A stretch of 64,000 bases of DNA from Silanimonas sp. (GTDB taxonomy: Bacteria > Pseudomonadota > Gammaproteobacteria > Xanthomonadales > Xanthomonadaceae): contig NZ_JBILJW010000002.1 of NCBI RefSeq assembly GCF_044377035.1, positions 66,380-130,379 of the forward strand, written 5' to 3'. The notes under the pieces are model-generated. The model was not told the origin of the DNA, did not search any database, and saw only the letters and a program-made list of their open reading frames with translations. A program made the position numbers and the translations under genes. Positions 7,519-45,648 of the stretch are shown piece by piece; within the stretch, counting starts at the first letter, position 1; the number at the start of each line of letters is the position of its first letter.

Positions 7519-9249
7519 TCAATTCACCGGGCAACCTTGCAGGCTGCCAAGCGGCGTCACCACATCGCTCGCCGCCCACGTGCCCGGCACGCCCGCCGTG
7601 TAGGTGCCGCTGAGCTGGATGCCTTGCAGCGTCCCGGAAGCGAAGGTGCGGGTGAAGGTTCCGATGCGCGAACGCACCGGATCACCCGTCCGCACGCAGA
7701 GCGGGCATGCACCGGTGTTCTGCTCCAGGTTGAGCGTCTGCGTGGCTGCGCCGATGCCGCTGCGTTCGGCGATGAGGTAACGGGGCACGCCGCGGGCGTC
7801 ATAACCGAACACCGTGTAGAACTCGTAGTTCGGGAACAACTGGACGCTGTAGCCACTGCCCGACCTCGCCGGATCGAACCAGTGCCCGCTCGCGTTAAGC
7901 GTCGCGCCCGCGAACGTCGGACACCCGCCGCCGAAGTTCTCGTAGGCCTCGCTGCCCACTTCCCCGTCCAGGGTGTAGCTGAGGGTGAAGGCACTGGTCG
8001 ATGTCGGCGTGATCGTCGCGTGGCCAATGGCGGTCAGCTGGTTCCTCGTCCCGAACCAGGCACTCCGGTAGACCACGCCACGCCAGATGCCGTTCGCTCC
8101 AGGCGCCGCTTCCTGCAGGTAGTACCAGGTTGGCGTGCCATCCTGCAGATACGTGTACCAGAGACCCGCCCAAGCCGCGCCGGCCGGATACACGAACAGT
8201 CCCGAGCCGCTGCGACCCGGGTTGTAGTAGCCCCCCGGCCGCACGCGCGGGGCGGTTCCGACCACGGTGGCGCGCAAGGAAAGCGCGACGGCGCCCGAAC
8301 CGGGGTTCGCGACCACCGCATACCAGCGGCCGGGCGCCGGGTTGGCGATCACCACCGACTCGTTGCCACCGAAGACGTCCGAGCGGCCTTCCGGCGTCGT
8401 GGACGGCGCGCGAGGCACCAACGGCTGCGCCGCGCTGCTGGCCGCGGCCGGAGCGCGAACGGCCGACAGCGCGATGCCGGCGGCGGACTGCGTGGTGATC
8501 CGGAGTTCGGTCGCACCCGCCGGCACGTCGATGAACGCGTGGTCCAGCGTTTCACCCTGACGCATCCTGAAGGTGCGAGCGACACCATCCTGCAGCGCGA
8601 CAGCCGTCGATTCCGCGGCCGTGCGCTTCACCTCGACGGGCACCACGGCCTGGACCACACCGTCCACGATCATCCGAATGGCCCCCCAACGTCGCTCGGT
8701 CGCCAGCAGGGTCGGGTCGTTCCATTGCAGGCGGACCGGCGTCGACGCCCCGGCAGGTGCATTGCCAGGCGCGGTCGCGACGAGGGAACCATCGCCAACC
8801 GACAGCGGAATTTCGGCGGAAGACACCCCGATCGTCTGCCGCACGCCGGCACGGTTGTGAACCACGACCCAGTAGTCGAGAGGCAGGTTGGCCGTCGGCG
8901 TCAGGGGAACGTCGCAGCGCTCGCCAACGCCACTGCTGGCCGCGCATTCGACCTCCAGCACGGAAGGCTGGCCGTCGCCGTTGCCGTCGATACCGACGTA
9001 TAGGTCGACGTCACCGGCCAAACCCGCGGCCTCGACCACGAGATGCCGTTCCACGGGGGTGGCGGACGCCGCGATGCGACGCATCTGGAACGACGTCCCT
9101 TCGAACGAGCGGTCCCACGGGGACTCCGGCGTCGTATCGAGGTTCGTGACCAGCGACCATCCCGAGGGCGCATGCAAGGCGCTGGCGTTGAACAGGACAT
9201 TGCTCAGCGGACGCAGTCCGATGCCCTGCAGGTCGCGGAACCCGCTGCC
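7519..9249 (-). repeat. Shared C-terminal cassette, copy A (~576 aa; tandem novel module = 7519..8241)
   Basis: Colinear with the C termini of the ORFs ending at 33597, 37718 and 41941. The last 240 aa are 194/240 identical to copy B by hand alignment. Confidence 0.8.
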
Positions 9250-12200
9250 CGTCGGCACCTCGAGGCGGATCGGCCCCACGCCACCGCCGATCGACGGGGA
9301 CACCGTGATCTGCATTTCCGCCGCGCTGCAGCGCGGCGCCGCCCCGCCTTCGCAGAGCTGGTAGCGCAGCCGATCGATGCCGCTCCACGACGCCGCAGGC
9401 ACGTAACGGATGAGGTCGTCGGCGGGGCCAGGAAGCGGCCCCGCCACGATGGACGCCGTACCCGGCGACGGGCTGGAAACAATCACCAAACGACCGCCGG
9501 CAAGCGCGGCCGAAGAATAGACGTCGTTAGCTACGACGGCCATGGTCGTCGCTGGACCGTTCTCGGCCACCCAGAGCCGGTCGGGCCTCGCCACGATGAC
9601 GTTGATGTCGACGATCACCAGCGGGTCGGCGAACGCCACCACCTGCAGGTTGCCATCGCTGGCGGTGATGCGCGCGCTGATCCGACGGCCGACATCGGCA
9701 TCCGCGACCTGGTAGGTCTCGCCCGTCGCACCGGGGATGGGGATGCCGTCGCGCAACCACTCACGGTTTACTGTCACGGCGTCGCCGTCCGGGTCGCGGG
9801 CGCCGTAGGCCTGGAGCGTCAGTACCTCGCGCGGCCGCGGCACACCGCTGATCCGGGGCACCGCGTCGAACTGAGGGGGATCGGGGACCGGCGCGAGGCG
9901 AAGGGTCCACTGTGCGGACGTCGCCGCGGTGCCGGCGCCCATCGAGGTGCCGACGTTCACACGCAAGGCCACGTCGCCATTCGCGTCAGCACTCGGGGTG
10001 TAGGTGAACGCCGGCCGCGCCGCGAGCGCGACGACCCGCGCGGCCTCGCCTTCGACGGAAATCCAGCCGCTCGACGGGGAGATGGTCAGTCCGCTGGTAT
10101 CGCCCGACACCGACCATGCGCCGCCGGTGACCTCGAGTCGCAAACCAATCCGGGCAGAGTCTGGCTCGTCGACGGTGAAGGCCGGGATGAGCAGCGGCTG
10201 GTCCTCGACGCCCTCGATCACAAGCTGCATCGGGGAAATCGTCGGCGGGTCGTCCCTCTCGACAACGAAAATCGATCCCACCTGTGCCGTTGCCGTCGCG
10301 CCCGGGGCACCGGCAATGGCGCCGAGATTGCGCGTTCCGCCACGCACCAACGGCCCTTCGGTGAAGAAGGACACCGTGGCGAGGGCACTGCTGCACTGGG
10401 CAGGCGTGAGCGTGCCGCCCACCGGGGCCAAATCGAGACGCATGGCGACTGCGTTCCAGCGCGCGTTGGGCGCGTCCGAACCGAGGCGATCGGTAGCGGG
10501 GTTGCCGCCACCCGAAATCACGGCCGCGCAGATGGCGATGTCACTGTCGACGTCGTCGACCCTGGCATCGATGCCCAGGCGCTGCGGCGCATCGCCTTCG
10601 GTGTAGTAGGCGGAGCGCGGGTTCGCATAGATCGTCGGCGCATCGTCGACAGGCGTGATGCGGATCGTGCGGGTCAGCGCGCCTGACGCCGAATCGCCAG
10701 GCCCCCCTTGGTCGCGGACCGTGAACGTGAGCGTGACGTCACGCGTGTCGTTGGGCTCGGTGCGGAAAAGAACGCGGCCGGCGGCCAAAGCGGCACGGAC
10801 CTCGGCCACGGAGCCGGCCAGACTGGCTTCCCGCGACGACCAGCCCGAGGGGCTGACCTTAAGGGAACCGCGGTCGACGGCAAAAGCCACATAGATCGTG
10901 CCGCGGCTGTCGGCGTCGAAAAAGTCGAAGCCCTGCAGGCTCAATTCCACGTCTTCAGTTGCCTGCAGCGCGTCCGGCCCCGAGGGCACGGGCGGATCGT
11001 TGAACGGCTGAACACGGAGCGGGATGTCCATCGGCGTGGACTTCACGTCGCCGTCAACGGCTTCGAAACGCACAGTGCGGTCGAGCGCTGCGGCCACCTC
11101 GGCTCGGTTGCTGTAGCCCACACGGCGAATCGCCTCGCGCCAATGGGCGAGGGTCGCGGTTCCGGACGGCGACCGCAACGACAGGGTCGCCGACGCCGCA
11201 TTGAAGCTGGCTCCGATGTCGCCGATGGCCCCGCCCGGAGTGATCTCGAGGCCTTCACCCGCGACGGCATCGAGGATCCGCACGTCGACGCGAGACGGCC
11301 GGTCACCTTCGAGGTCACACAGCAGCGCACCCGGCGCCAGCACCACGGCAGGAGCATCCTCAACCGCCGCGATGACGTCCGTCGCCTCGCGGCTCAGCGA
11401 CGGCTCGGTGTTGACTGGCAAGGCGAGGCTTCCCACGCGCATTGGCGCACGATCAAGGCCCACCGGCCGTCCCACGGCAACGAGGGTCCGCGACGAGGTG
11501 TCCCAAGTGGCGCCGTAGATTTGACTGCCGGTGGCCGCAACGAGCGGGCGCAGGGTGCAACCGTCCCACAGCCGGGCGCCATCGAAGCGCTGTTCGCCAT
11601 ACGGCGCGCGCAAGGCGCCGACAAGCAGGGCGCCCCCACCCGGCAGGGGCATCACGCCGTTCGGGCTACCAAAGACGTCCTTCCCCAAGGGTGACCATGT
11701 CCGCGTCGCCGGGCTCCAGCGGAACAGGGGCGTCGCGGGCTGGCCGAAGCTGAACTCGTTGGCGTACTGGGTGCCAAGCAGCGTGCCGGTCTCCGTATCC
11801 CAGGCCGTCGCAGTGAGACCGCCCGGAGATCGCTCCATCGCCTGCCAAGCCGCACCGTCCCAGAGGGCAATACCCGGGCTGCTGACACCACCCGCTGTGG
11901 AAAAAGCGCCAGTCACGAACAGCGCGCCGTCCGCGTCCCGAAGCGAGGCGTGTCCCACCGGGCCGCTCAATCCGGACTGAAGTCGATTCCAGCGCGTGCC
12001 ATCCCACATGGCGATGTTGCTCACGCCGGCATCGCCCGCATCGTCGAACTCGCCCATGGCGAACAGACGGCCACGCGCCGGATCCAGTAAGAGTTTGCTC
12101 ACGGAGAGGGAATCATCCGCGCGCAAGCCTGAGCCCAGCGGCTGCCAGCGAGCGCCGTCCCAAACAGCGATGTTAGCGGCCGCGACGCCCCCGGCGACGG

Positions 12201-13611
12201 CAAACCTGCCGGCGGCATACAGGCGACGGGTCGATCGATCCCACGCCAGTGCGGTCACGGAGTCGTCCCGCACGACGCCGACGCCAGCACCGAGGGCCAC
12301 CCAGCGGGCACCGTCCCAACGCGCCACGCGCGCGGCGGCCACCCCATCGATCGCAGTGAAGTCGCCACCGACGTAGAGATCCCCGGTGTCCGGGTCACGC
12401 ACCACTTCGTTGACACGGCCCGACGTGCCGGGATCGAAGGCGGACCAGTTGCCACCGGCCAAGGCCGCGACATTGTTCGCCGTGATCCCGCCGATCTCCC
12501 GGAACATGCCACCGACGACAAGTCGGCCCTGCGTGGCATCCCAGGTCACCGAAGCGACAAAGTCCTCCGAACTGCCTGCGAGCACCTGCCAAGACGCCCC
12601 GTTCCAGACATGAAGCGCGGTGTACTGCGTGTCGACGTTGATCAGGGCGTACAGGCGGCCATGCACCGGATCGATGGCCAGTTCGCCACCGCTCTCCCAC
12701 CCGTTGGCGCTGGAGCGTCCATCGCCGACGGTGGACCACGTCGTACCGTCCCACTGGATCACGGCCAAACGATCGAAGTCCCCTTCCCGCGTGCTCGTGG
12801 CGTTGAGGTAAACGCGACCGCTGACGGGGTGGACGGCGACGTGGCCCGGCGCGAGATCGAACTCCGCGGAAGCCACGCCCGTCCACGCCGTGCCGTTCCA
12901 GTAGGCGAATCCTTCCGCGGGAATACCGCCATCGACCCGATCAAACGCGCCGGACACATAGAGGCGTCCGTTCGACGGCGACCACGCCAACGACTGCGCG
13001 TAACCATTCCCGTCGAGGCCAGCGCCGAGCGACTGCCAGCGCGTGCCATCCCAGCGGCCGACGCCATTCAACGCCCTGCCTTCGATGGCGTCGAACGCCC
13101 CTCCAGCGTAAAGATGGCCCGTGGCCGGATCCACGGCGAGCGAGCGGATGCCGGGTGGCGAAACGTAGCCGTCCGGCGTACCGGTCGCGCGAAGTGCAGA
13201 CCAGCGGGTCCCGTCCCACATCGCCAAACCGTTGGCGCGAACGCCACCAATCTCGGTAAAGGTGCCAGCGACGTAAAGCCGGCCACGGGAGCCATCCCAA
13301 GCCATCGCAGTGATCGAGAGTTGCGCACCAACCGCGTGGCCGAGGCCCCGCCAGCGGCTGCCGTTCCAATGCGCGATGCCGAGAGCGGCCTCGTCCTTGA
13401 CGCCGGTAAACCAGCCGGCGATGAACACCTGCCCGTTCCCAGCGGCTGTGTGCGTCACCAGACTGTCGATCTCGCCCGATGCACGCCGCTGCCAGTCGAG
13501 GCCGGGGATCGCGGGTTCCACCGCCGCCGTGGCGACGTTGACGAACAGCACAGCGAACAGCGCGGCGAAAGCGAGCCACCGCGGAGCGCGGTGAACGTCC
13601 TTGTCGAACAT
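7519..13611 (-). CDS. Giant secreted protein A (2030 aa): signal peptide, about 14 propeller blades, cadherin-like repeats, shared C-terminal cassette
   Basis: Uninterrupted 6.1-kb ORF with a GAGGA SD 7 nt upstream. N terminus WLAFAALFAVLFVNVATAAV. About 14 repeats of ~50 aa of the type LAWD..xGRLYVGGxFxxxGGVxAxxIAxWDGxxWxxLGxG. Then domains bounded by NDPP/VDDAPT/DDPPT/VPDPP. Two PPC-like domains plus a tandem novel module at the end. Confidence 0.85.
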   Translation of the reverse strand: MFDKDVHRAPRWLAFAALFAVLFVNVATAAVEPAIPGLDWQRRASGEIDSLVTHTAAGNGQVFIAGWFTGVKDEAALGIAHWNGSRWRGLGHAVGAQLSITAMAWDGSRGRLYVAGTFTEIGGVRANGLAMWDGTRWSALRATGTPDGYVSPPGIRSLAVDPATGHLYAGGAFDAIEGRALNGVGRWDGTRWQSLGAGLDGNGYAQSLAWSPSNGRLYVSGAFDRVDGGIPAEGFAYWNGTAWTGVASAEFDLAPGHVAVHPVSGRVYLNATSTREGDFDRLAVIQWDGTTWSTVGDGRSSANGWESGGELAIDPVHGRLYALINVDTQYTALHVWNGASWQVLAGSSEDFVASVTWDATQGRLVVGGMFREIGGITANNVAALAGGNWSAFDPGTSGRVNEVVRDPDTGDLYVGGDFTAIDGVAAARVARWDGARWVALGAGVGVVRDDSVTALAWDRSTRRLYAAGRFAVAGGVAAANIAVWDGARWQPLGSGLRADDSLSVSKLLLDPARGRLFAMGEFDDAGDAGVSNIAMWDGTRWNRLQSGLSGPVGHASLRDADGALFVTGAFSTAGGVSSPGIALWDGAAWQAMERSPGGLTATAWDTETGTLLGTQYANEFSFGQPATPLFRWSPATRTWSPLGKDVFGSPNGVMPLPGGGALLVGALRAPYGEQRFDGARLWDGCTLRPLVAATGSQIYGATWDTSSRTLVAVGRPVGLDRAPMRVGSLALPVNTEPSLSREATDVIAAVEDAPAVVLAPGALLCDLEGDRPSRVDVRILDAVAGEGLEITPGGAIGDIGASFNAASATLSLRSPSGTATLAHWREAIRRVGYSNRAEVAAALDRTVRFEAVDGDVKSTPMDIPLRVQPFNDPPVPSGPDALQATEDVELSLQGFDFFDADSRGTIYVAFAVDRGSLKVSPSGWSSREASLAGSVAEVRAALAAGRVLFRTEPNDTRDVTLTFTVRDQGGPGDSASGALTRTIRITPVDDAPTIYANPRSAYYTEGDAPQRLGIDARVDDVDSDIAICAAVISGGGNPATDRLGSDAPNARWNAVAMRLDLAPVGGTLTPAQCSSALATVSFFTEGPLVRGGTRNLGAIAGAPGATATAQVGSIFVVERDDPPTISPMQLVIEGVEDQPLLIPAFTVDEPDSARIGLRLEVTGGAWSVSGDTSGLTISPSSGWISVEGEAARVVALAARPAFTYTPSADANGDVALRVNVGTSMGAGTAATSAQWTLRLAPVPDPPQFDAVPRISGVPRPREVLTLQAYGARDPDGDAVTVNREWLRDGIPIPGATGETYQVADADVGRRISARITASDGNLQVVAFADPLVIVDINVIVARPDRLWVAENGPATTMAVVANDVYSSAALAGGRLVIVSSPSPGTASIVAGPLPGPADDLIRYVPAASWSGIDRLRYQLCEGGAAPRCSAAEMQITVSPSIGGGVGPIRLEVPTGSGFRDLQGIGLRPLSNVLFNASALHAPSGWSLVTNLDTTPESPWDRSFEGTSFQMRRIAASATPVERHLVVEAAGLAGDVDLYVGIDGNGDGQPSVLEVECAASSGVGERCDVPLTPTANLPLDYWVVVHNRAGVRQTIGVSSAEIPLSVGDGSLVATAPGNAPAGASTPVRLQWNDPTLLATERRWGAIRMIVDGVVQAVVPVEVKRTAAESTAVALQDGVARTFRMRQGETLDHAFIDVPAGATELRITTQSAAGIALSAVRAPAAASSAAQPLVPRAPSTTPEGRSDVFGGNESVVIANPAPGRWYAVVANPGSGAVALSLRATVVGTAPRVRPGGYYNPGRSGSGLFVYPAGAAWAGLWYTYLQDGTPTWYYLQEAAPGANGIWRGVVYRSAWFGTRNQLTAIGHATITPTSTSAFTLSYTLDGEVGSEAYENFGGGCPTFAGATLNASGHWFDPARSGSGYSVQLFPNYEFYTVFGYDARGVPRYLIAERSGIGAATQTLNLEQNTGACPLCVRTGDPVRSRIGTFTRTFASGTLQGIQLSGTYTAGVPGTWAASDVVTPLGSLQGCPVN

Positions 13612-33596: not shown

Positions 33597-35339
33597 TCAG
33601 TTCCCCGCGCAGCCTTGCAGGGTGCCGAGCGGCGTCACCGCGTCGTTCGCCGCCCACGTGCCCGCCACGCCGGCCGTGTAGGTGCCGGTGAGCTGGATGC
33701 GCTGCAGCGTGCCGCTGCCCACCGTTCGCGTCAGCGTCCCCACCGAGTTGCGCACCGGGTTGCCCGTGCGCGTGCACAGCGGGCAGGCACCGGTGTTCTG
33801 GTCGAGGCTCATCGACTGCGTCGCCGTGCCAATGCCACTCCGCTCCGCGATGAGGTACCGCGGCACGCCCTGCGCGTCGTAACCGAACACCGTGTAGAAC
33901 TCGTAGTTCGGGAACAGCTGCACGCTGTAGCCCGAACCTGCCCGTGCCGGATCGAACCAGTGGCCGCTGGCGTTCAAGGGCGCACCCGCGAACGTCGGAC
34001 AACCGCCGCCGAAGTTCTCGTAGGCCTCGCTGCCGGTCTCGCCGTCCAGCGTGTAGCTGAAGGTGAAGGCACTCGTCGAACGCGGCGTCACCGTCGCCTC
34101 GCCCACGGGGGTGAGGAAGTTGCTGCTGCCGTTCCACGCACTTCGGTAGATCGTGCCGCGCCAGATGCCGGTAGCACCCGGTGCTGGAGCCTGCAGGTAG
34201 TACCAGGTCGGCGTGCCGTCCTGCAGGTAGGTGTACCAGAGCCCGGCCCACTCGCTGCCCGCGGGGTAGAGGAACAAGCCGTTGCCCGAGCGCTGCGGGT
34301 TGTAGAACCCGCCGGGGCGCAGTTGAAGGCCGGTGCCGGTCAGCGTGGCGCGCACCGTCAGGTCGGCCGTGGTGCCGGCGGCGTTCACCGGCGTCACGTA
34401 CCAGCGCCCCGCGGCGGGGTTGTTGACCGTGAGCGATTCATTACCCGAGGGCGTCACGGAACTCGCGCTCGCGAGATTGCGCGCCGGCGCGCTCGGCACG
34501 CTCGGCGTGGCGCTGCTTGCCGCGGGCGTGTCGATGCGCGCGAGATACAGGTCAACGTTCGTCGCGCTGGTCGTGGTTGCATCGAGTCGCGTCGTGCCCG
34601 GCGGCACGTCGATATAGAGGCCCTCGTTCGCCGCCGAGTCGGCCAAGGCCATCGCGTGGTCGATGCCGCTCTGCAGGGCAAAGGGCACCGCCGCACCGGC
34701 GCCACGCTCGATCCGTACCGGCACCCAGCCCAGCGACGTGTTCGCGTCCGACTTCACTTCCAGCCAGCCGCCGCGCACCTGCCCGGGCGCCATCGTGGCG
34801 TCGTTCCAAATCAGACGCATCGCGAACTCCGCATTGGCCGCCACAGCACCGGGGCCCGTGGCAACGAGCTGACGCTGGGCTAGCGGACGGTCCACCGGCA
34901 CCTCGAACAGCTCGGCACGCGCATTCTGCGCGCCGCTCCGCGAATGCAGTAGCACCCAATAGCGTGACGGCGTGTTCGCCGCCTGCGACACAGCAAGCTC
35001 GCAGCGCTCCGACACAGCAGACATCGCCGAAGAGCAAGCAACTTCATTGCTGTCAGCCTGGCCGTTGTTGTTCGCATCGAGTCCGAGGTACACGTCCACG
35101 TCCCCGCCCGAGAGCGAGATGGCATCGACGAACACCCGCCACGTGCGGGCGGAGGGTCCCGCGGCGAAGGTGCGCAGGGTCGTCGACGTGCCACCGGCGT
35201 CAAACGGAGTTTCCGGCGTCGTGTCGGCCGTCAGCGATGGCGACACCAGCGCTGGCGCCACCAGACCGTGGGCGTCGAACCGCGCGCTTGGGAGCGCAGA
35301 AATCCCCGAAAGCTCGATGTCATGCAGACCACGATCGCG
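33597..35339 (-). repeat. Shared C-terminal cassette, copy B (~580 aa; tandem novel module = 33597..34319)
   Basis: Colinear with copies A, C and D. Ends ...TPLGTLQGCAGN. Confidence 0.8.
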
Positions 35340-37691
35340 CGCCGCTATTGGGGCGACCATCGACTCCGCAACCGGGCGTCGCAGGATCTGGACTTCGGCC
35401 TCGCTGCAGCGACCACCGAAGTCGCAAAGGCGGTAACGAAGGCTGTCTTCACGCACGGGCGACGTCGGCGAATAGCTGATGCGATCGTCTGATGCGTCAC
35501 CGGACAACTCGCCAGCAGAAATGCTTGCCGAACCATTTACTGGAGCGCGGACAATGGAGAGAGCGCCTCCGAGGAGACTCCCGGGGTTGAATTCGTCATT
35601 GTCGAGTGACGGGAGTATCGCCTGTGTCGTGCCAACCATCAGGACAAAGCGATCGTTGCGAGCGGCCAACGACGGAACACCATTTCCGTCGTCGTTGAGG
35701 ATACGAATCAGCCCCTCCGCATCCGCGAGTCGCGCATTTGTCGGGGCCGATGCGATCACGTGGAACTGCTCGTCGATCTCTTCCAGCGTGTCGCCATAAA
35801 CGACAAAGTCGAAGGACCCACGCGACTCTCCCTGAGGGATGACGACGGTCACCGAAGAAGCGTCGTAGTCTTCGCCAGCCGTTGCCGAGCCATTGATGGC
35901 CCGCATCGATACGGATACTCCACCCGGTGGTGCGGGTTGGGAGAGATCGACAGCAACGCCCATGCGGGATAGCGTCACGTCGCCCTCGCGCACGCTGGCA
36001 TTTCCAACGCTAAGCCATACAACTCCTGGCGGCCCTACTTGCACGTTCCACGTCCGCCGATGCACGAGGTCCGTTCCCGCCATCGCTGCTCGCACCAGCG
36101 CCGTCGTGTCGGTGGCGCGCAATTCCACCTGCCGCGTCGCCGGGCCACCCGTGCCGGGCTGGAAGGTGAACGTGGTGCCATTCGCGCCGCTGACGGCCAC
36201 GCCGTCGACGTACCACTGCAGGCTCACCGAATCCGGCTGCGGGCGCAGCACGCTCGCGGAGAACACCTGCGATCCGCCGGCCGCCACGTTGACGGTCGTT
36301 GCACTGGAGGGGCTCTCGCTGCCCGGCTCGATCAGGTCGATACCGGCCGATGGCGTCCCCCAACCTCCGCGATACAGCCGCAGCACGTACTCCTGCGAGC
36401 ACACGGAACAGAACTGCCCGCCGAGGCTGCGCATGGCGCAGTTGTTCGCGGGGCGGTGCATGCCGGTGGTCTGGTAACGCGCGCCGACGAACAGGCCGAC
36501 GCCCGCCGTGCCGGCTGGCGTGGGAATCGCGTTGCCCGGCGTGATCCACGACGCCCACTTGATGCTTCCAGCGACGGTCTGGTCGGTGACGTTCGCTTCG
36601 CAGGCGCGCGTGCCGCTGATATCGCTGCAGGCCGGAAAGCCGGGATAAGCGGTGGTGTACTCATCGGCCAGGCGATGGAAGGTGTGGCCGTACTCGTGCA
36701 CGACGATCAGCCGCGCACTGGTGTTGGTGGTGGTGACGGAGATGCTGCCGCCGGCGCCGCCGTACACCGGGTCGTTCACCAGCACGATGATCTCATCCCA
36801 GTTCGGGCTGGCACTCGCCGCCGCCAGCACCTTGCTGTTGTTGACCGTGACCAAGCGGTGGATCTGGCTGGTGCAGAAGCGGCCGTCGAACGCGGTGTTG
36901 ACGAAGGTGTTGGCACGCGGGTCGGTCTGCGCGGCCGTTTCGGCGCAGCAGCTCGTCGTGGTGCAGCCCGCTTGGTAAGGCGGGTGGTCGGCGCCGCTCT
37001 GCGCCGATGCGGTGAACAGCGAAGTCCAGTTCACGAAGCTGGCGTACTCGCGGTAGGGCGAGAAGCCGAACATCGCCACGCGCATGTTCTCGACGTCGGT
37101 GGCGAAAGTCGCCGCTTCGGCGGCGGTGTAGCCGTCGCCCATCACCAGCACGTCCACGCGATTCGATGACGGACCACTGGCGGTACCGCGCCCGTCACCC
37201 GACGCGCTCTGGGCGTCGGCCTCGGGAATTGCGGGAATCGGCAACAAGGCCGCTTCGCGCTCCACGACGGCGAGATCCAGCGTCGTTTCGCGGCCGAGGT
37301 TGGACAACGTGAGTTCGCCATCGACACCGGCCGGAACGCGGACCACGAACGCGCGCTCCACATCGGGGGCGACACGGCTTTCGATGGCGCCATCGACGCC
37401 GTTGGCGGCGAACTCCCCTCGGACGAAGCGGGGCACGTCGACGACCGTGCGCCAGCCCTCGGCCTCAACGACGAGTTGATCGGGGTTGGCGCGAGCCAGG
37501 GCCAACGCACCGGCACTTGCCACGGCGCGATCGCCGTCGAGGGCCACGCGACGGTGGAAGACCGGCTCGGGCCGGCCGTCGGCATCGAGCCGCACGACGA
37601 GGTAGTGCCCCGCGAGGTCCTCCCGGACCGGCAGCGCCGCGGTCGGCGCCGCCACGAGCGCCGCGGCGATCGCCGGGGCGCTCCACCGCAT
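33597..37691 (-). CDS. Giant secreted protein B (~1364 aa): M64 (IgA-peptidase-like) zinc metallopeptidase, Calx-beta, cadherin-like, shared C-terminal cassette
   Basis: Start at MRWSAPAIAAALVAAPTAALP (track start 37775). M64 pattern VDVLVMGDGYTAAE ... VNDPVYGGAGG ... HEYGHTFHRLADEY (HEYGH at 36684..36698). Calx-beta-like: INGSATAGEDYDASSVTVVIPQGESRGSFDFVVYGDTLEEIDEQF. Confidence 0.85.
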   Translation of the reverse strand: MRWSAPAIAAALVAAPTAALPVREDLAGHYLVVRLDADGRPEPVFHRRVALDGDRAVASAGALALARANPDQLVVEAEGWRTVVDVPRFVRGEFAANGVDGAIESRVAPDVERAFVVRVPAGVDGELTLSNLGRETTLDLAVVEREAALLPIPAIPEADAQSASGDGRGTASGPSSNRVDVLVMGDGYTAAEAATFATDVENMRVAMFGFSPYREYASFVNWTSLFTASAQSGADHPPYQAGCTTTSCCAETAAQTDPRANTFVNTAFDGRFCTSQIHRLVTVNNSKVLAAASASPNWDEIIVLVNDPVYGGAGGSISVTTTNTSARLIVVHEYGHTFHRLADEYTTAYPGFPACSDISGTRACEANVTDQTVAGSIKWASWITPGNAIPTPAGTAGVGLFVGARYQTTGMHRPANNCAMRSLGGQFCSVCSQEYVLRLYRGGWGTPSAGIDLIEPGSESPSSATTVNVAAGGSQVFSASVLRPQPDSVSLQWYVDGVAVSGANGTTFTFQPGTGGPATRQVELRATDTTALVRAAMAGTDLVHRRTWNVQVGPPGVVWLSVGNASVREGDVTLSRMGVAVDLSQPAPPGGVSVSMRAINGSATAGEDYDASSVTVVIPQGESRGSFDFVVYGDTLEEIDEQFHVIASAPTNARLADAEGLIRILNDDGNGVPSLAARNDRFVLMVGTTQAILPSLDNDEFNPGSLLGGALSIVRAPVNGSASISAGELSGDASDDRISYSPTSPVREDSLRYRLCDFGGRCSEAEVQILRRPVAESMVAPIAARDRGLHDIELSGISALPSARFDAHGLVAPALVSPSLTADTTPETPFDAGGTSTTLRTFAAGPSARTWRVFVDAISLSGGDVDVYLGLDANNNGQADSNEVACSSAMSAVSERCELAVSQAANTPSRYWVLLHSRSGAQNARAELFEVPVDRPLAQRQLVATGPGAVAANAEFAMRLIWNDATMAPGQVRGGWLEVKSDANTSLGWVPVRIERGAGAAVPFALQSGIDHAMALADSAANEGLYIDVPPGTTRLDATTTSATNVDLYLARIDTPAASSATPSVPSAPARNLASASSVTPSGNESLTVNNPAAGRWYVTPVNAAGTTADLTVRATLTGTGLQLRPGGFYNPQRSGNGLFLYPAGSEWAGLWYTYLQDGTPTWYYLQAPAPGATGIWRGTIYRSAWNGSSNFLTPVGEATVTPRSTSAFTFSYTLDGETGSEAYENFGGGCPTFAGAPLNASGHWFDPARAGSGYSVQLFPNYEFYTVFGYDAQGVPRYLIAERSGIGTATQSMSLDQNTGACPLCTRTGNPVRNSVGTLTRTVGSGTLQRIQLTGTYTAGVAGTWAANDAVTPLGTLQGCAGN

Positions 37692-37717
37692 CCAGCGCGT
37701 CCATGCGCCGCCGCCGA

Positions 37718-41797
<4,080 letters not shown>

Positions 41798-41880
41798 CAC
41801 GGGGGCGGCATCCTTCGGAGTCCCCCCGATGGTAGCGAAGCCCGCTCTCCGTCTTGTCAACGAATCACAGCGTCCGTCAC

Positions 41881-41911
41881 AAAACGACACCCCGGCGTGG
41901 GCCGGGGTGTC
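41881..41911 (-). terminator. Rho-independent terminator after giant gene D
   Basis: Minus strand reads GACACCCCGGCccacGCCGGGGTGTCgtttt, 30 nt after the stop of gene D. A TTGACA hexamer follows before gene C. Confidence 0.7.
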
Positions 41912-41940
41912 GGGTCAAGCGCGAGGCACGAGGAGCGCGG

Positions 41941-43707
41941 TCAGGGCGTGCAGCCCTGCAGGCTGCCGAGGGCGCCGACCGATTCGTTGGCCGTCCAGGT
42001 GCCCTGCACGCCATTCACGAACGTTCCGCTCAGGGTGATGTTCGAGAACGTGCCACCGGAGAAACCGCGCGAGAACGTACCGATGGTGTTGCGGGTCGGC
42101 GTGCCGGTGCGGTTGCAGAGCGGGCAAAAGCCGTTGATCTGCTCGAGGTCGGCGGTCGCCGTCGCGCCGCCGAAGCTCGTGCGCTCGGCGATCAGGTAGC
42201 GCGGGATGCCCAGGCCGTCGTAGGCGAACACCGTGTAGAACTCGTAGTTCGGGAACATCTGCACGCTGTAGCCCGAGCCGGCGGTGGCCGGGTTGAACCA
42301 GTGCGAGCTCACGTTGAGCGGGCTACCCGACAGCGTCGGGCAGCCGCCACCGAAGTTGCGGAAGGCCTCCGAGCCGGTCTCGCCGTCGAGGTTGTACGAG
42401 AACGTGAACTCATTGGTGGCCGTCGGGCTGACGGTGGCGCTGCCCACTTCCACCAAGGTGTTCGCGCTGCCGTTCCAGGCACTGCGGAACAGCTGCCCCG
42501 ACCAGAAGCCGTTCGCTCCCGGCGCGGCGCCCTGCAGGTAGTACCAGGTCGGCGTGCCATCGGCGAGGAACGTGTACCAGAGGCCCGCGAGCTGGCTGCC
42601 CGCCGGATACAGGAAGAACCCGTGGCCGCTGCGTTCCGGGTTGAAGTAGCCGCCCGGACGGATGCTCGGCGCGGTGCCGGCGATCGTGGCGCGGAGCGTG
42701 AGGCTGGCCGTGGTGCCCGAGGCGTTCACCGGGGTCAGGTACCAGCGGCCCGCGGCCGGGTTCGCCACGGTCACCGTTTCATTACCGCTGGTCGTCGTGG
42801 CGCTCGCGGTGGCGGTGTTGCGTGCCGGCGCCGCAGCGATCGTCGGGATCGCCGCGGCCGGCACGATCGGTGCGACGCGTGCGAGGTAGAGATCGACGTT
42901 CGCGCTGCTCGTCGTGGTGACCGTGAGCTGGGTCGCTCCCGCCGGCACGTCGATGTAGGCGAATTCCTGCGAGGCCCCGGCGGCCAGCAGGATCTGGCGG
43001 TCCACGCCCGCCGACATCGCGAACGGCGACGGCGTGGCCGAGTTGCGCGTCAGCTTGAACGGCACGCGGATCGCGTTCACGCCCGGGCCGCGATCAACGA
43101 TGAGGAAGCCGAAGCGCGACTGCCCGTTGAGGAAGGTCGGATCGTCATACACGAGGCGCGCGGTGAACGCCGCGTTGGCCGGCACATTGCCCGGGCCGGT
43201 GGCCTTCTGGCGCGCCGATGGCAGGTTGTCGATGGCGGCCATCTCGAGCCGTGCGTCGTTGCGCGCGCCGGTGCTGCTTGCGGTCCAGTTCTGCACCAGA
43301 CCCCAAACCGTGATCGGCACGTTGTTGCCGGGGTGGGTGACGGTGATCGAGCAGGCTTCGGTCGCGCCCGACGAGGTGCTGGTGCAGCGCTCCTCGGCCT
43401 CTTCCGGCTGGCCGTCGCCGTCGCTGTCGACGCCGACAAACAGATCGAAGTCCTGCGCGGCGGGCGACGAGGCCGGGGCCAGCGTCACGTTGACCTGGAC
43501 CGTGTGGGTCTGCCCGTCATTGAAGTTGATCGGCACGTTCTGGAAGAACACGCCATCGGTGAGGCTGTCGTAGGGGTCGCCGTTGGTGCTGTCCTGCAGC
43601 AGCCCTTCCTGCTTCGCCACCGGCACCGCGAGATCGGTGGCGGCGAAGCGGGCGTTGTTGAGGCTGATGATGTTGCTGAGGTCGAAATCGACATAGCCGC
43701 GATCGCC
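41941..43707 (-). repeat. Shared C-terminal cassette, copy D (~588 aa; tandem novel module = 41941..42660)
   Basis: Colinear with copies A, B and C. Ends ...GALGSLQGCTP. Confidence 0.8.
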
Positions 43708-45648
43708 GCTGACGTTGCGGACCTGAAGCGGCGGCACTGCGCCCGACGATAGGTATACGGCCACCGGCAGCGTGAGGTCCGGCGTACCGCCGCCCACGCG
43801 ACGCAGCGTGACCGAACCGTAGGCCCAGGTGTTCAGCGCGCTCTGCGCGTTCGTGCTGAAGCGGAACGACAGCGCCTGCGAACCACTGCCGCTGAGCGTA
43901 AAGGTGCTCGGCGTGGTCGTCAGCGACAGGCCCGCCGGCAGGCTCGCGATGACCTGGTACTGCCCACCGGCGGCCCCCGGCATCACCGAAACGGTGCGAT
44001 CGAGCGTGCAGGTCTCGACGCAGTTGGCGGCGGCGAGCGACGGCAGGTTCAGCGTGGAAGCCGTGCCCTCGCTGGCATTGCGGAAGGCGCCGACGGGGAC
44101 GTTGAAGGCCAGCGAGGCGTTGGCGGCCTTCTCGAGGTCGACCGTGCCCGCGCCGCGGCCGTGCGGCGTGGTGGCAAGGCCATCAGCGAATTCGACGATG
44201 GTGGACGCGCGTGCAGTAAGCGCCAGCGCCGAGGCGATCTGGTCGGCGTTCCAGCTGGGGCGTGCGGCACTGAGCAGGGCCGCGGCACCTGCCACGTGCG
44301 GCGAGGCCATCGATGTGCCGCTGAGCTGGATGATGTCGTTGCCGGTACGACCGGCGGCGCGGATTGAAACGCCCGGCGCCGCGACGTCGGGCTTGAGCGC
44401 GCCGAGCGGCGAGACCGGGCCACGGCCGCTGAAGGTGGCGAGGCGATCGCCGGGACCGGTGCGGTCGTGCGTGACGGCGGCGACGCTGATCACCCAAGGG
44501 GCGTTCGACGGCGAACCGAGCGAACCCGGATCGGGGCCGTCGTTGCCGGCCGCGACGGCGACCACGATGCCGGCCTCGCGGGCGGCGAGGAAGGCTTCCT
44601 CGTCCGAGTTCACCGCGCCGCCGACAGTCAGCCAGGGGTCTGACGATCCGCCCCCGATCGAGTAATTGATGACGTCGACCTGGTCGGCGACAGCGCGGTT
44701 GATCGCGGCCAGCAGCTGGCTGCCCGAGTTCGGGCCGCAGGAGCGGCTGTCCGGCGTGGAGCCGCAGCCGCGGTAGGCAATCAGGTTGGCGCGCGGCGCG
44801 ACGCCGCTGAGGTCGACCACTTGGCCGCTGATCGTGCTGGTGATCGGGTTGCCCACGGCCGTGGCGGCGACGTGCGTGCCGTGGCCGTCCGGGTCCGCGG
44901 TGAATGCCGAGGTGCCGTTCGTGCCGCCGGTGACGAAGTCGTAGACGCCGATCAACTTGTTGTTGCAGACGCCGGCGTTGGCCGGGGTGGCGCACCAACC
45001 CAGCAGCGCGCCCTTGGGGTTGGTGTGTGTGTAGCCGGCGGCCGTCGCCGCGAAGGACACGTGGGTCGGGTTCACGCCGGAGTCGATGACACCGACGACG
45101 ACGCCTTCGCCGCGGCTGGTGACGCCGGCGCTGCCGGTCCAGATCGACGGTGCCTTGATCCAGCTCGGACCGCGTTCCGTCATCGCGCGACGCTCGAAAT
45201 CGGGCGTCACGGCGCGAATGCCGGGCATGTCGGCCAGGGCCTCGGCCTCGGCGGGCGTCAGGTCGAGTGCGACGCCGTTGAGGGCGTGCTCATAGATGAA
45301 CTTCGGCACGAGGTCGCGGCCCACGGCAGCGGAGGCCGCGTCGAGGCGCTGCTCGCGCAAGGTACCGATGTAGGCCAGGTAGGCCTCGGCTTCGGGACGC
45401 TCCGGGTCGTACTTGGCCTGGCCGGTCAGCGAAATGGCGACCGGTGCCAGCGCCGGGCGACGCCCGTCCTTGGCTTGGAAACCACGGAACAGCGGAGCGG
45501 CAGGTTCGTCGAAGCTGACGATGTACGAGCCACGCACGTGGGCCGACGCGGCGGAGGCGGCAGCCAGCGGGCGGTCGCTGCGCGCATCGACAGGCGCGGC
45601 AAGGGGAAGCGCCAGCGTGATCGCGGCGGCGAGGGTAAGCAATCGCAT
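41941..45648 (-). CDS. Giant secreted protein D (~1235 aa): S8 subtilisin-like serine protease with I9 propeptide (no PA insert), shared C-terminal cassette
   Basis: Start at MRLLTLAAAITLALPLAAP with an AGGA SD 7 nt upstream (track start 45672). Motifs VVVGVIDSGVNPTHVSF, DGHGTHVAATAVGN, SGTSMASPHVAGAAALL. Confidence 0.85.
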   Translation of the reverse strand: MRLLTLAAAITLALPLAAPVDARSDRPLAAASAASAHVRGSYIVSFDEPAAPLFRGFQAKDGRRPALAPVAISLTGQAKYDPERPEAEAYLAYIGTLREQRLDAASAAVGRDLVPKFIYEHALNGVALDLTPAEAEALADMPGIRAVTPDFERRAMTERGPSWIKAPSIWTGSAGVTSRGEGVVVGVIDSGVNPTHVSFAATAAGYTHTNPKGALLGWCATPANAGVCNNKLIGVYDFVTGGTNGTSAFTADPDGHGTHVAATAVGNPITSTISGQVVDLSGVAPRANLIAYRGCGSTPDSRSCGPNSGSQLLAAINRAVADQVDVINYSIGGGSSDPWLTVGGAVNSDEEAFLAAREAGIVVAVAAGNDGPDPGSLGSPSNAPWVISVAAVTHDRTGPGDRLATFSGRGPVSPLGALKPDVAAPGVSIRAAGRTGNDIIQLSGTSMASPHVAGAAALLSAARPSWNADQIASALALTARASTIVEFADGLATTPHGRGAGTVDLEKAANASLAFNVPVGAFRNASEGTASTLNLPSLAAANCVETCTLDRTVSVMPGAAGGQYQVIASLPAGLSLTTTPSTFTLSGSGSQALSFRFSTNAQSALNTWAYGSVTLRRVGGGTPDLTLPVAVYLSSGAVPPLQVRNVSGDRGYVDFDLSNIISLNNARFAATDLAVPVAKQEGLLQDSTNGDPYDSLTDGVFFQNVPINFNDGQTHTVQVNVTLAPASSPAAQDFDLFVGVDSDGDGQPEEAEERCTSTSSGATEACSITVTHPGNNVPITVWGLVQNWTASSTGARNDARLEMAAIDNLPSARQKATGPGNVPANAAFTARLVYDDPTFLNGQSRFGFLIVDRGPGVNAIRVPFKLTRNSATPSPFAMSAGVDRQILLAAGASQEFAYIDVPAGATQLTVTTTSSANVDLYLARVAPIVPAAAIPTIAAAPARNTATASATTTSGNETVTVANPAAGRWYLTPVNASGTTASLTLRATIAGTAPSIRPGGYFNPERSGHGFFLYPAGSQLAGLWYTFLADGTPTWYYLQGAAPGANGFWSGQLFRSAWNGSANTLVEVGSATVSPTATNEFTFSYNLDGETGSEAFRNFGGGCPTLSGSPLNVSSHWFNPATAGSGYSVQMFPNYEFYTVFAYDGLGIPRYLIAERTSFGGATATADLEQINGFCPLCNRTGTPTRNTIGTFSRGFSGGTFSNITLSGTFVNGVQGTWTANESVGALGSLQGCTP

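Follow-up and report, generated by a model that had tools for sequence, protein, structure and literature searches.

A double-barrel module ends the common C-terminal cassette of large exoproteins in Silanimonas and Arenimonas

Four large genes on the minus strand of a 64-kb stretch of Silanimonas sp. DNA (contig NZ_JBILJW010000002.1; the whole stretch is referred to below as the window) encode proteins with unrelated N-terminal parts, called heads here, and one and the same C-terminal cassette of about 590 aa. An architecture in which secreted hydrolases share a non-catalytic block at the C-terminus is already known. What is new is the double-barrel family with which the cassette ends, the fixed five-domain order of a cassette that is also found as a free-standing protein, and its use as the common tail of the large exoproteins of this clade. 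The carriers, three proteases and an adhesin-like propeller protein, may be exoproteins of the Sec pathway and the type II secretion system (T2SS) that retain the self-folding, disulfide-stabilised cassette as a common non-catalytic targeting or retention device; this is the reading that we tentatively prefer, at somewhat less than even confidence. The four carriers, as described from open reading frames (ORFs) and Pfam matches, are the following.

Gene A, 7519..13611, minus strand: propeller of ~13-14 blades, cadherin-like repeats, Big_9 and cassette; 2030 aa.
Gene B, 33597..37691, minus strand: M64 zinc peptidase, Calx-beta, Big_9-like domain and cassette; 1364 aa from the ATG.
Gene C, 37718..41797, minus strand: I9, S8 subtilase with PA insert and cassette; 1359 aa.
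Gene D, 41941..45648, minus strand: I9, S8 subtilase, fn3_6 and cassette; 1235 aa.

An initial annotation, made from the letters of the stretch, had proposed these four minus-strand ORFs with colinear tails. The ORF list and translations confirmed the genes and their ends, and the last ~600 aa of all four proteins were found to align in one order. Identity among the four cassettes amounted to 44-55% overall and to ~65-80% over the last 240 aa. When a hidden Markov model (HMM) of the terminal module was run over the window, exactly four copies were recovered, with 295-315 bits each, and a tail shared in this way by four genes is far beyond chance. From its beginning to its end the cassette is composed of a PPC-like sandwich, a small beta-sandwich, a PPC sandwich and two tandem 8-stranded beta-barrels. 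The two barrels constitute the terminal module, located as follows.

Gene B terminal module, 33600..34319, minus strand: 240 aa, two tandem 8-stranded beta-barrels (AlphaFold 2 model, AF2); HMM 315 bits.
Gene C terminal module, 37721..38437, minus strand: HMM 299 bits.
Gene D terminal module, 41944..42660, minus strand: HMM 302 bits.
Gene A terminal module, 7522..8241, minus strand: 81% identical to the gene B module (HMM and alignment).

The AF2 model of the module is all-beta (predicted local distance difference test, pLDDT, 86; predicted template-modelling score, pTM, 0.85) and falls into two units, the first of 8 strands (residues 1-102 of the last 240 aa) and the second of 8-9 strands (residues 118-235). 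Both halves open with the motif G-x-[YW]-[FY]-[ND]-P-x-R-x-G-x-G ... [WF]-Y-x-Y ... G-x-P and align with each other at an hhalign E-value of 4e-4. The tandem pair of an unassigned module described in the initial annotation is therefore real. No other part of the tail is as conserved as this module, in which many Trp, Tyr and Gly residues are invariant whatever head it is attached to, and this conservation speaks for one common partner or ligand. Neither as a single sequence nor as a profile did it give a match in Pfam (E<=10), NCBIfam or the PDB, where the only hits were chance matches to MORN-repeat-type proteins (radial spoke head 1). Among structures, the high-probability local Foldseek matches were single 8-stranded barrels, namely the designed proteins 6czi and 6czj and the lipocalin C8-gamma; matches of the double barrel to PCNA and UL44 were dismissed at TM-scores near 0.15. 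The double barrel is a domain family new to curated libraries and solved structures.

Distant relatives of barrel 1 (E 1e-6 to 1e-9) were encountered in small secreted proteins with a single barrel and the element 'WWNPxESGWG' (P0208-P0211), which share with it the pattern G-x-W-[WYF]-N-P-x-x-S-G-x-G ... W-[FY]-x-Y ... G-x-P-x-W-Y. Unlike the cassette, these proteins of ~250 aa carry their one barrel behind a small Ig-like domain and have neither PPC domains nor the conserved terminal Cys. They (P0208-P0211 and L074:4028-4834) show the motif DHWWNPQESGWG...WFVY..GQPVWYTLQ and belong to no Pfam family; in two metagenome contigs their genes lie near a gene for an RCC1/Big_2 protein.

The part of the cassette that precedes the module, its front, is of a more familiar nature.

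Gene B cassette front, 34320..35381, minus strand: 354 aa; entry strand, PPC-like sandwich 1 with Cys pair, middle beta-sandwich and PPC sandwich 2 (AF2, Foldseek, Pfam).
Gene C cassette front, 38438..39508, minus strand: recognised by alignment.
Gene D cassette front, 42661..43755, minus strand: two Pfam PPC stretches, 39.8 bits.
Gene A cassette front, 8242..9300, minus strand: the most divergent of the four, with <=45% identity to any other front.

Against the PF04151 gathering score of 25.9, gene D passed with 30.2 bits for the whole protein and 39.8 bits for the isolated front, whereas genes B, C and A, homologous to it by alignment, remained below the cut-off with 23.6, 21.3 and 18.9 bits, respectively. 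The PPC signature DxDxY...W was visible in both PPC sandwiches of the alignment. For the front, an AF2 model based on an alignment of 42 sequences shows, with high confidence, three beta-sandwiches one after the other (pLDDT 92.7, pTM 0.88). Its nearest Foldseek neighbour was the pair of collagen-binding domains s3a-s3b of ColG (5iku, E=2.6e-7), which together with the model gives the front the jelly-roll fold of PPC domains; further neighbours were the SIDT1/2 ectodomains, tandem CBM22 and Cry/Vip3 domains. The front 60% of the cassette is a routine string of named binding-type beta-sandwiches. The initial annotation had admitted that the cassette would be ordinary domain reuse if the whole of it consisted of already-named domains; this turned out to apply to the PPC-type front and to fail for the last ~240 aa, for which Pfam, NCBIfam and the PDB offer no name.

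The resemblance of the front to PPC and ColG domains extends to two PPC-type sandwiches with DxDxY...W, a place C-terminal to secreted peptidases and a fold of tandem sandwiches. It differs from them in that the PPC units of the cassette belong to a fixed order of five domains, to which an additional sandwich and the double barrel of 240 aa contribute, and in that the cassette also occurs on heads other than proteases and as a free-standing protein. In protease E495, the PPC domains bind protein substrates, and one of them stays on a mature form and raises its activity on proteins (PMC3327674).

Each cassette has exactly six Cys residues, which are conserved in the tail. The Cys pair of PPC-like domain 1, reported in the initial annotation, proved invariant across the 42-sequence alignment. 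In 231 terminal modules that were compared, C107 and C237 were essentially always present, and C179 and C182, which form a CPLC motif, were absent jointly from 34, or about 15% of the family members. This pattern suggests disulfides C107-C237 and C179-C182 in the terminal module, the former of which would staple the last residues of the protein to the start of barrel 2. The six Cys residues and the joint loss of C179 and C182 point to oxidative folding in the periplasm. The CPLC (CxxC) motif itself lies in a loop of barrel 2 (module positions 179-182; 33774-33785 on the minus strand in gene B) and may form a small disulfide loop, act as a redox motif or bind a metal. The proteins end almost universally in [QR]GC-x(1-3)-stop, as gene B does with ...QGCAGN-stop. 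A role of this C-terminal Cys in lipidation or cleavage was considered and dropped in favour of a structural disulfide on the basis of the Cys co-occurrence pattern. Because of the probable C107-C237 bond, the ending is best regarded as structural and not as a sortase-type or lipidation motif.

To size the family, 1.84 billion representative proteins were scanned in full with HMMER; this replaced a word-indexed protein search that had returned 35-49 mostly short fragments and had greatly underestimated the number of members. The scan gave 4109 module matches at E<=1e-3, 1311 at E<=1e-10 and 335 at E<=1e-30. In related genomes, to which the initial annotation had recommended extending an HMM search, the cassette is multi-copy and sits on unrelated heads. 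Two cultured type strains possess 4-5 copies each, and the carrier genes often stand in tandem twos or threes. Among species-representative genomes, 230 matches were confirmed; the best 80 of the 230 belong to Silanimonas, Arenimonas and unclassified Lysobacteraceae, Xanthomonadaceae or Lysobacterales, with the exception of three contigs of one metagenome-assembled genome (MAG) labelled Rhizobium. The latter contigs may be mis-binned, since their ~69% G+C matches that of the Lysobacteraceae loci. One more distant carrier is located in a context of 51% G+C that looks gammaproteobacterial. A literature search on secreted proteins of Silanimonas and Arenimonas yielded nothing relevant, and the NCBI label of one member, 'fibronectin type III domain-containing protein', is derived from another of its domains.

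The heads are diverse. In the window, Pfam bore out the unrelated heads seen in the initial annotation, with M64, S8 plus PA, S8 with fn3_6 and propeller/cadherin types. Gene B matches Peptidase_M64 (E 5e-38) and Calx-beta, and its HEYGH zinc motif was located at 36684-36698. Gene A contains Rax2/DUF5122 propeller repeats, Cadherin_4/5 and Big_9; its residues 82-682 include 11 clear W[DN]G..W motifs with a spacing of ~50 aa and two double-length gaps, and about 13-14 blades can therefore be counted, in agreement with the 14-blade propeller suggested before. The N-termini of the carriers resemble signal peptides, as had been noted, the assignment being made by eye only; the position of each start codon may be off by a few dozen codons. 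Outside the window the cassette was also found behind M12B reprolysin-like peptidases, NHL propellers, RCC1 propellers and Calx-beta/cadherin arrays. Two further classes are shorter, one of ~720-740 aa with a signal peptide, Big_9 and the cassette, and a head-less one of ~620-640 aa, in which the cassette alone follows the signal peptide. The head-less proteins suggest that the cassette acts by itself, beyond serving as an address label.

The comparison of loci revealed a mosaic evolution of these genes. The module of gene B is 93% identical to that of an RCC1-headed protein in a sister Silanimonas MAG (L065:6683-10720), whose Big_9 plus cassette is 77% identical to that of gene B and whose locus is not syntenic; in this MAG, an aminotransferase gene directly follows the D-C cluster, which includes no M64 gene. 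The two loci show a swap of heads on a tail that is conserved. Within the window, the modules of genes A and B, 26 kb apart, share 81% protein identity and reach a nucleotide identity of 0.82-0.87 in several 90-nt windows, whereas their cassette fronts share ~50% of nucleotides. Since the modules are this similar and the front of gene A is so divergent from every other, an exchange or gene conversion between paralogues is suggested for the last ~240 codons. By these comparisons, the cassette behaves as a mobile 3' block which recombines between heads. Silanimonas LE19 MAGs come closest to the window, which is syntenic with one of their loci (L001). Between 33597-45648 of the window and this locus of LE19-338.1E, the carriers were 82-90% identical and the housekeeping neighbours 91-98% identical, and thus the carriers evolve faster than their neighbours.

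We infer how the carriers are exported, that disulfides form in them, that the cassette is retained once they are secreted and that it binds a ligand. After Sec export they would fold in the periplasm, where the three disulfides of the cassette would form, and the folded proteins would then cross the outer membrane, probably by way of the general T2SS of Lysobacterales. Outside the cell the cassette would stay on, at least initially, as a common targeting or retention module, in which the PPC-type sandwiches may play the part known from other secreted peptidases, the binding of polymeric or protein substrates, and the double barrel may bind a single common ligand, either on the surface of the producer or on a shared substrate. 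Duplication and recombination of the 3' block would spread the cassette onto different heads.

Several points weigh against a retained targeting or retention cassette. Foldseek searches of the double barrel against the PDB and BFVD gave no match at E<=1e-3, and neither sequence nor structure connected the module significantly with a relative of known function. The position of the module is very strict, 0-5 residues from the C-terminus in 150 of the 150 top matches (172 to 3619 aa long, the shortest being fragments) and terminal in 97 of the 97 full-length copies from the fetched loci. At least 4-8 carriers are present per Silanimonas or Arenimonas genome. Strict terminal position, high copy number and restriction to a clade also mark a secretion or sorting domain, and binding modules usually vary in position and copy number. 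Dependence on T2SS is assumed in this reading, and the 64-kb window harbours no T2SS gene. Finally, PPC domains are often removed after secretion.

The strongest competitor, which we regard as unlikely, is that the double barrel is a signal for secretion or surface display, read by an unlinked outer-membrane translocator or anchor in the manner of the type XI secretion system (T11SS) or of the C-terminal domain (CTD) of the type IX secretion system (T9SS), with the PPC sandwiches as a pedestal or spacer. The module stands at the very C-terminus in every copy examined, each genome has at least 4-8 carriers with unrelated heads, the distribution is restricted to a clade, and each half is an 8-stranded barrel of ~105-120 aa whose weak structural neighbours include the barrels of TbpB and fHbp. 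T11SS cargo is defined by the same layout of variable effector, pedestal and C-terminal 8-stranded barrel, the last of which a DUF560 outer-membrane protein recognises. Uncharacterised T11SS clusters are expected to use novel targeting barrels, and a duplication of the barrel occurs in TbpB (PMC12282271). Like TbpB, fHbp, hemophilin and Pls, the carriers combine a Sec signal peptide, a variable effector, a beta-rich middle part and a small soluble C-terminal barrel of eight strands, the last according to AF2. However, the tail gave no match to the TbpBBD or lipoprotein-C families of Pfam at E<=10 and only chance matches as a PDB profile, and the Foldseek matches to TbpB and fHbp were not significant (E>=0.09, probability 0.2-0.5). 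The cassette also departs from T11SS cargo in having two tandem barrels with a probable disulfide staple, and its heads are large hydrolases and propellers, whereas T11SS cargo are metal- or haem-binding proteins.

The genes around the carriers likewise speak against such a signal. Known T11SS cargo usually adjoin the gene of their outer-membrane protein, but neither the genes annotated in the window nor the 20 neighbour families that recur most often include DUF560 or another gene for an outer-membrane protein, and the Pfam annotations of the loci L073 and L076 contain no DUF560, in a scan that was not exhaustive for flanking ORFs or whole genomes. The statement of the initial annotation that no secretion or sorting gene adjoins any copy holds for the window, the annotated genes of which are all of a housekeeping kind (among them the Mla/MCE ABC system, ccmA-H, valS, proS, cysG, cysK, a LysR regulator and a ThrE exporter). 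In a wider survey, 844 flanking ORFs from 73 loci were clustered and the 20 most recurrent families were annotated by Pfam. Among the clustered ORFs of these loci, no family accompanied carriers of different head types; the recurrent neighbours were ccm, ATP synthase, aminotransferase, PNPase, acetyl-CoA synthetase, aconitase, release factor (RF) and GGDEF protein genes, together with a few that had no Pfam match, and they reflect the synteny of orthologous loci. No secretion or sorting gene was among these recurrent neighbours, and the absence of a visible partner therefore extends to the neighbourhood level at ~70 loci. One candidate was rejected. A sortase and a VIT/VWA gene (L073, 357-3431), ~6.5 kb from a distant cassette-only gene, are absent from the other loci, and we take them to be a self-contained proteobacterial sortase/target pair.

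Two features of the cassette also fit poorly with a signal, namely the cassette-only proteins, which would be signals with nothing to deliver, and the length of 240 aa, or of 590 aa for the full cassette, which is very large for this purpose. The likeness to T9SS cargo consists in a strictly C-terminal, folded beta domain which marks many unrelated secreted hydrolases and adhesins per genome, encoded by genes that are scattered and away from the machinery. The T9SS CTD itself, however, is an Ig-like sandwich of ~80 aa from a different phylum: T9SS operates in Bacteroidota, outside of which the gammaproteobacterial order Lysobacterales lies. No tail matched TIGR04183 in NCBIfam, and the hosts are Silanimonas, Arenimonas and other Lysobacteraceae. 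Signals of sortases, exosortases and rhombosortases (LPXTG, PEP-CTERM, GlyGly-CTERM), in which a short motif precedes a hydrophobic helix and a basic tail, were not found in the tails, and no hydrophobic or transmembrane stretch extends past the C-terminal Cys. Substrates of a type I secretion system (T1SS) of the RTX kind lack a Sec signal peptide, are poor in Cys, have Gly-rich nonapeptide repeats and an unstructured signal at the C-terminus, and are encoded next to ABC and MFP genes. Export by this route does not agree with the signal-peptide-like N-termini, the six Cys residues per cassette and the folded C-terminus, and the only ABC genes adjoining carriers in the window were ccmA and those of the Mla system.

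A more specific proposal, which we consider rather doubtful, is that the Silanimonas/Arenimonas branch of Lysobacterales possesses a pathway for export or surface display at the outer membrane, either undescribed or T11SS-like and very divergent, for which the double barrel would be the recognition domain. The machinery would be encoded apart from its many cargo genes, and the stand-alone cassettes would be components or regulators. The initial annotation had interpreted the tail as a tag for sorting, anchoring or maturation. Its view of a family-defining tail with no adjacent partner stands. The tag role is not supported as it was formulated, in view of a routine PPC front, the absence of a sortase motif or transmembrane tail and the head-less copies, and a tag of this kind is not the most likely reading.

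It is quite improbable, in our estimation, that the cassette is a transient C-terminal pro-region which helps folding in the periplasm or passage through the T2SS and is then clipped off outside the cell. PPC domains are recognised in the tail and are commonly missing from some mature proteases, such as E495-M, a mature form without both of them (PMC3327674), and three of the four window carriers are proteases that would be able to process themselves. However, the cassette is also carried by NHL, RCC1 and Rax2-like propellers and by cadherin arrays, and a folding aid that is discarded would hardly be expected to occur by itself after a signal peptide, as the cassette does. The terminal module is, moreover, more conserved than the rest of the tail, which a pro-region does not need. 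The stand-alone proteins, which indicate an activity of the cassette itself, and the non-protease heads are the reasons for which a retained cassette is favoured over a discarded pro-region. Barrels embedded in the outer membrane as anchors, similar to OmpA/OmpX or to autotransporters, are hardly credible: the C-terminal region is all-beta and rich in aromatic residues, with strands of alternating hydrophobic and polar residues, but the barrels have ~100-120 aa each and a mean strand length near 9 residues, two conserved disulfides are probable, the proteins end in ...QGC-x(1-3) with no terminal aromatic beta-signal, no autotransporter (type Va secretion system, T5aSS; PF03797) or outer-membrane protein family of Pfam was matched by the 2 x 8 strands, and the pTM of 0.85 implies that the barrels pack together as one soluble unit. 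The beta-domain of a classical autotransporter is a 12-stranded barrel of ~270 aa that ends in an aromatic residue.

The arrangement of the carrier genes was also recorded. The G+C content of the window is about 69%. Genes B and C are separated by 26 nt, as their coordinates confirm, and the terminator announced beyond gene D was found as a hairpin read from 41912 to 41885.

Intrinsic-terminator-like hairpin, 41885..41912, minus strand: immediately past gene D and ahead of gene C; 12-bp stem and T run.

Three adjacent cassette genes on the same strand, for instance M12B-type or NHL-type paralogues, were seen in Arenimonas (L017, L028, L034, L058 and L061) and mirror the D-C-B run of the window. 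In S. lenta, Silanimonas LE19-98.1A and Arenimonas (L021, L031 and L066), the ccm operon is followed by a D-type gene and then by an aminotransferase gene; in the two Silanimonas genomes there is also a C-type gene after the D-type gene and a CN-hydrolase gene after the aminotransferase. In the window, a block of ~30 kb from gene A to gene B (7519-37691), with LysR, cysG, cysK, valS, proS, ThrE and Mla, stands between gene C and the aminotransferase. Both ends of this block are cassette genes of the same strand with modules 81% identical, and a rearrangement through the repeated cassette possibly lies behind it.

Summarizing, the double-barrel family is sizeable: at E<=1e-30 it comprises 335 representative clusters, and weaker relatives number in the thousands. 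Much of the repertoire of large exoproteins in Silanimonas and Arenimonas, including proteases, propeller proteins and adhesins, bears the module. These genera are frequent members of freshwater, bloom-associated and engineered microbial communities. Binding of one common ligand by the barrel would explain how they keep degradative enzymes on a surface, and a role of the barrel as a sorting signal would hint at a route of secretion or anchoring that is still missing. In either case, the HMM of the module lists these exoproteins in one step.

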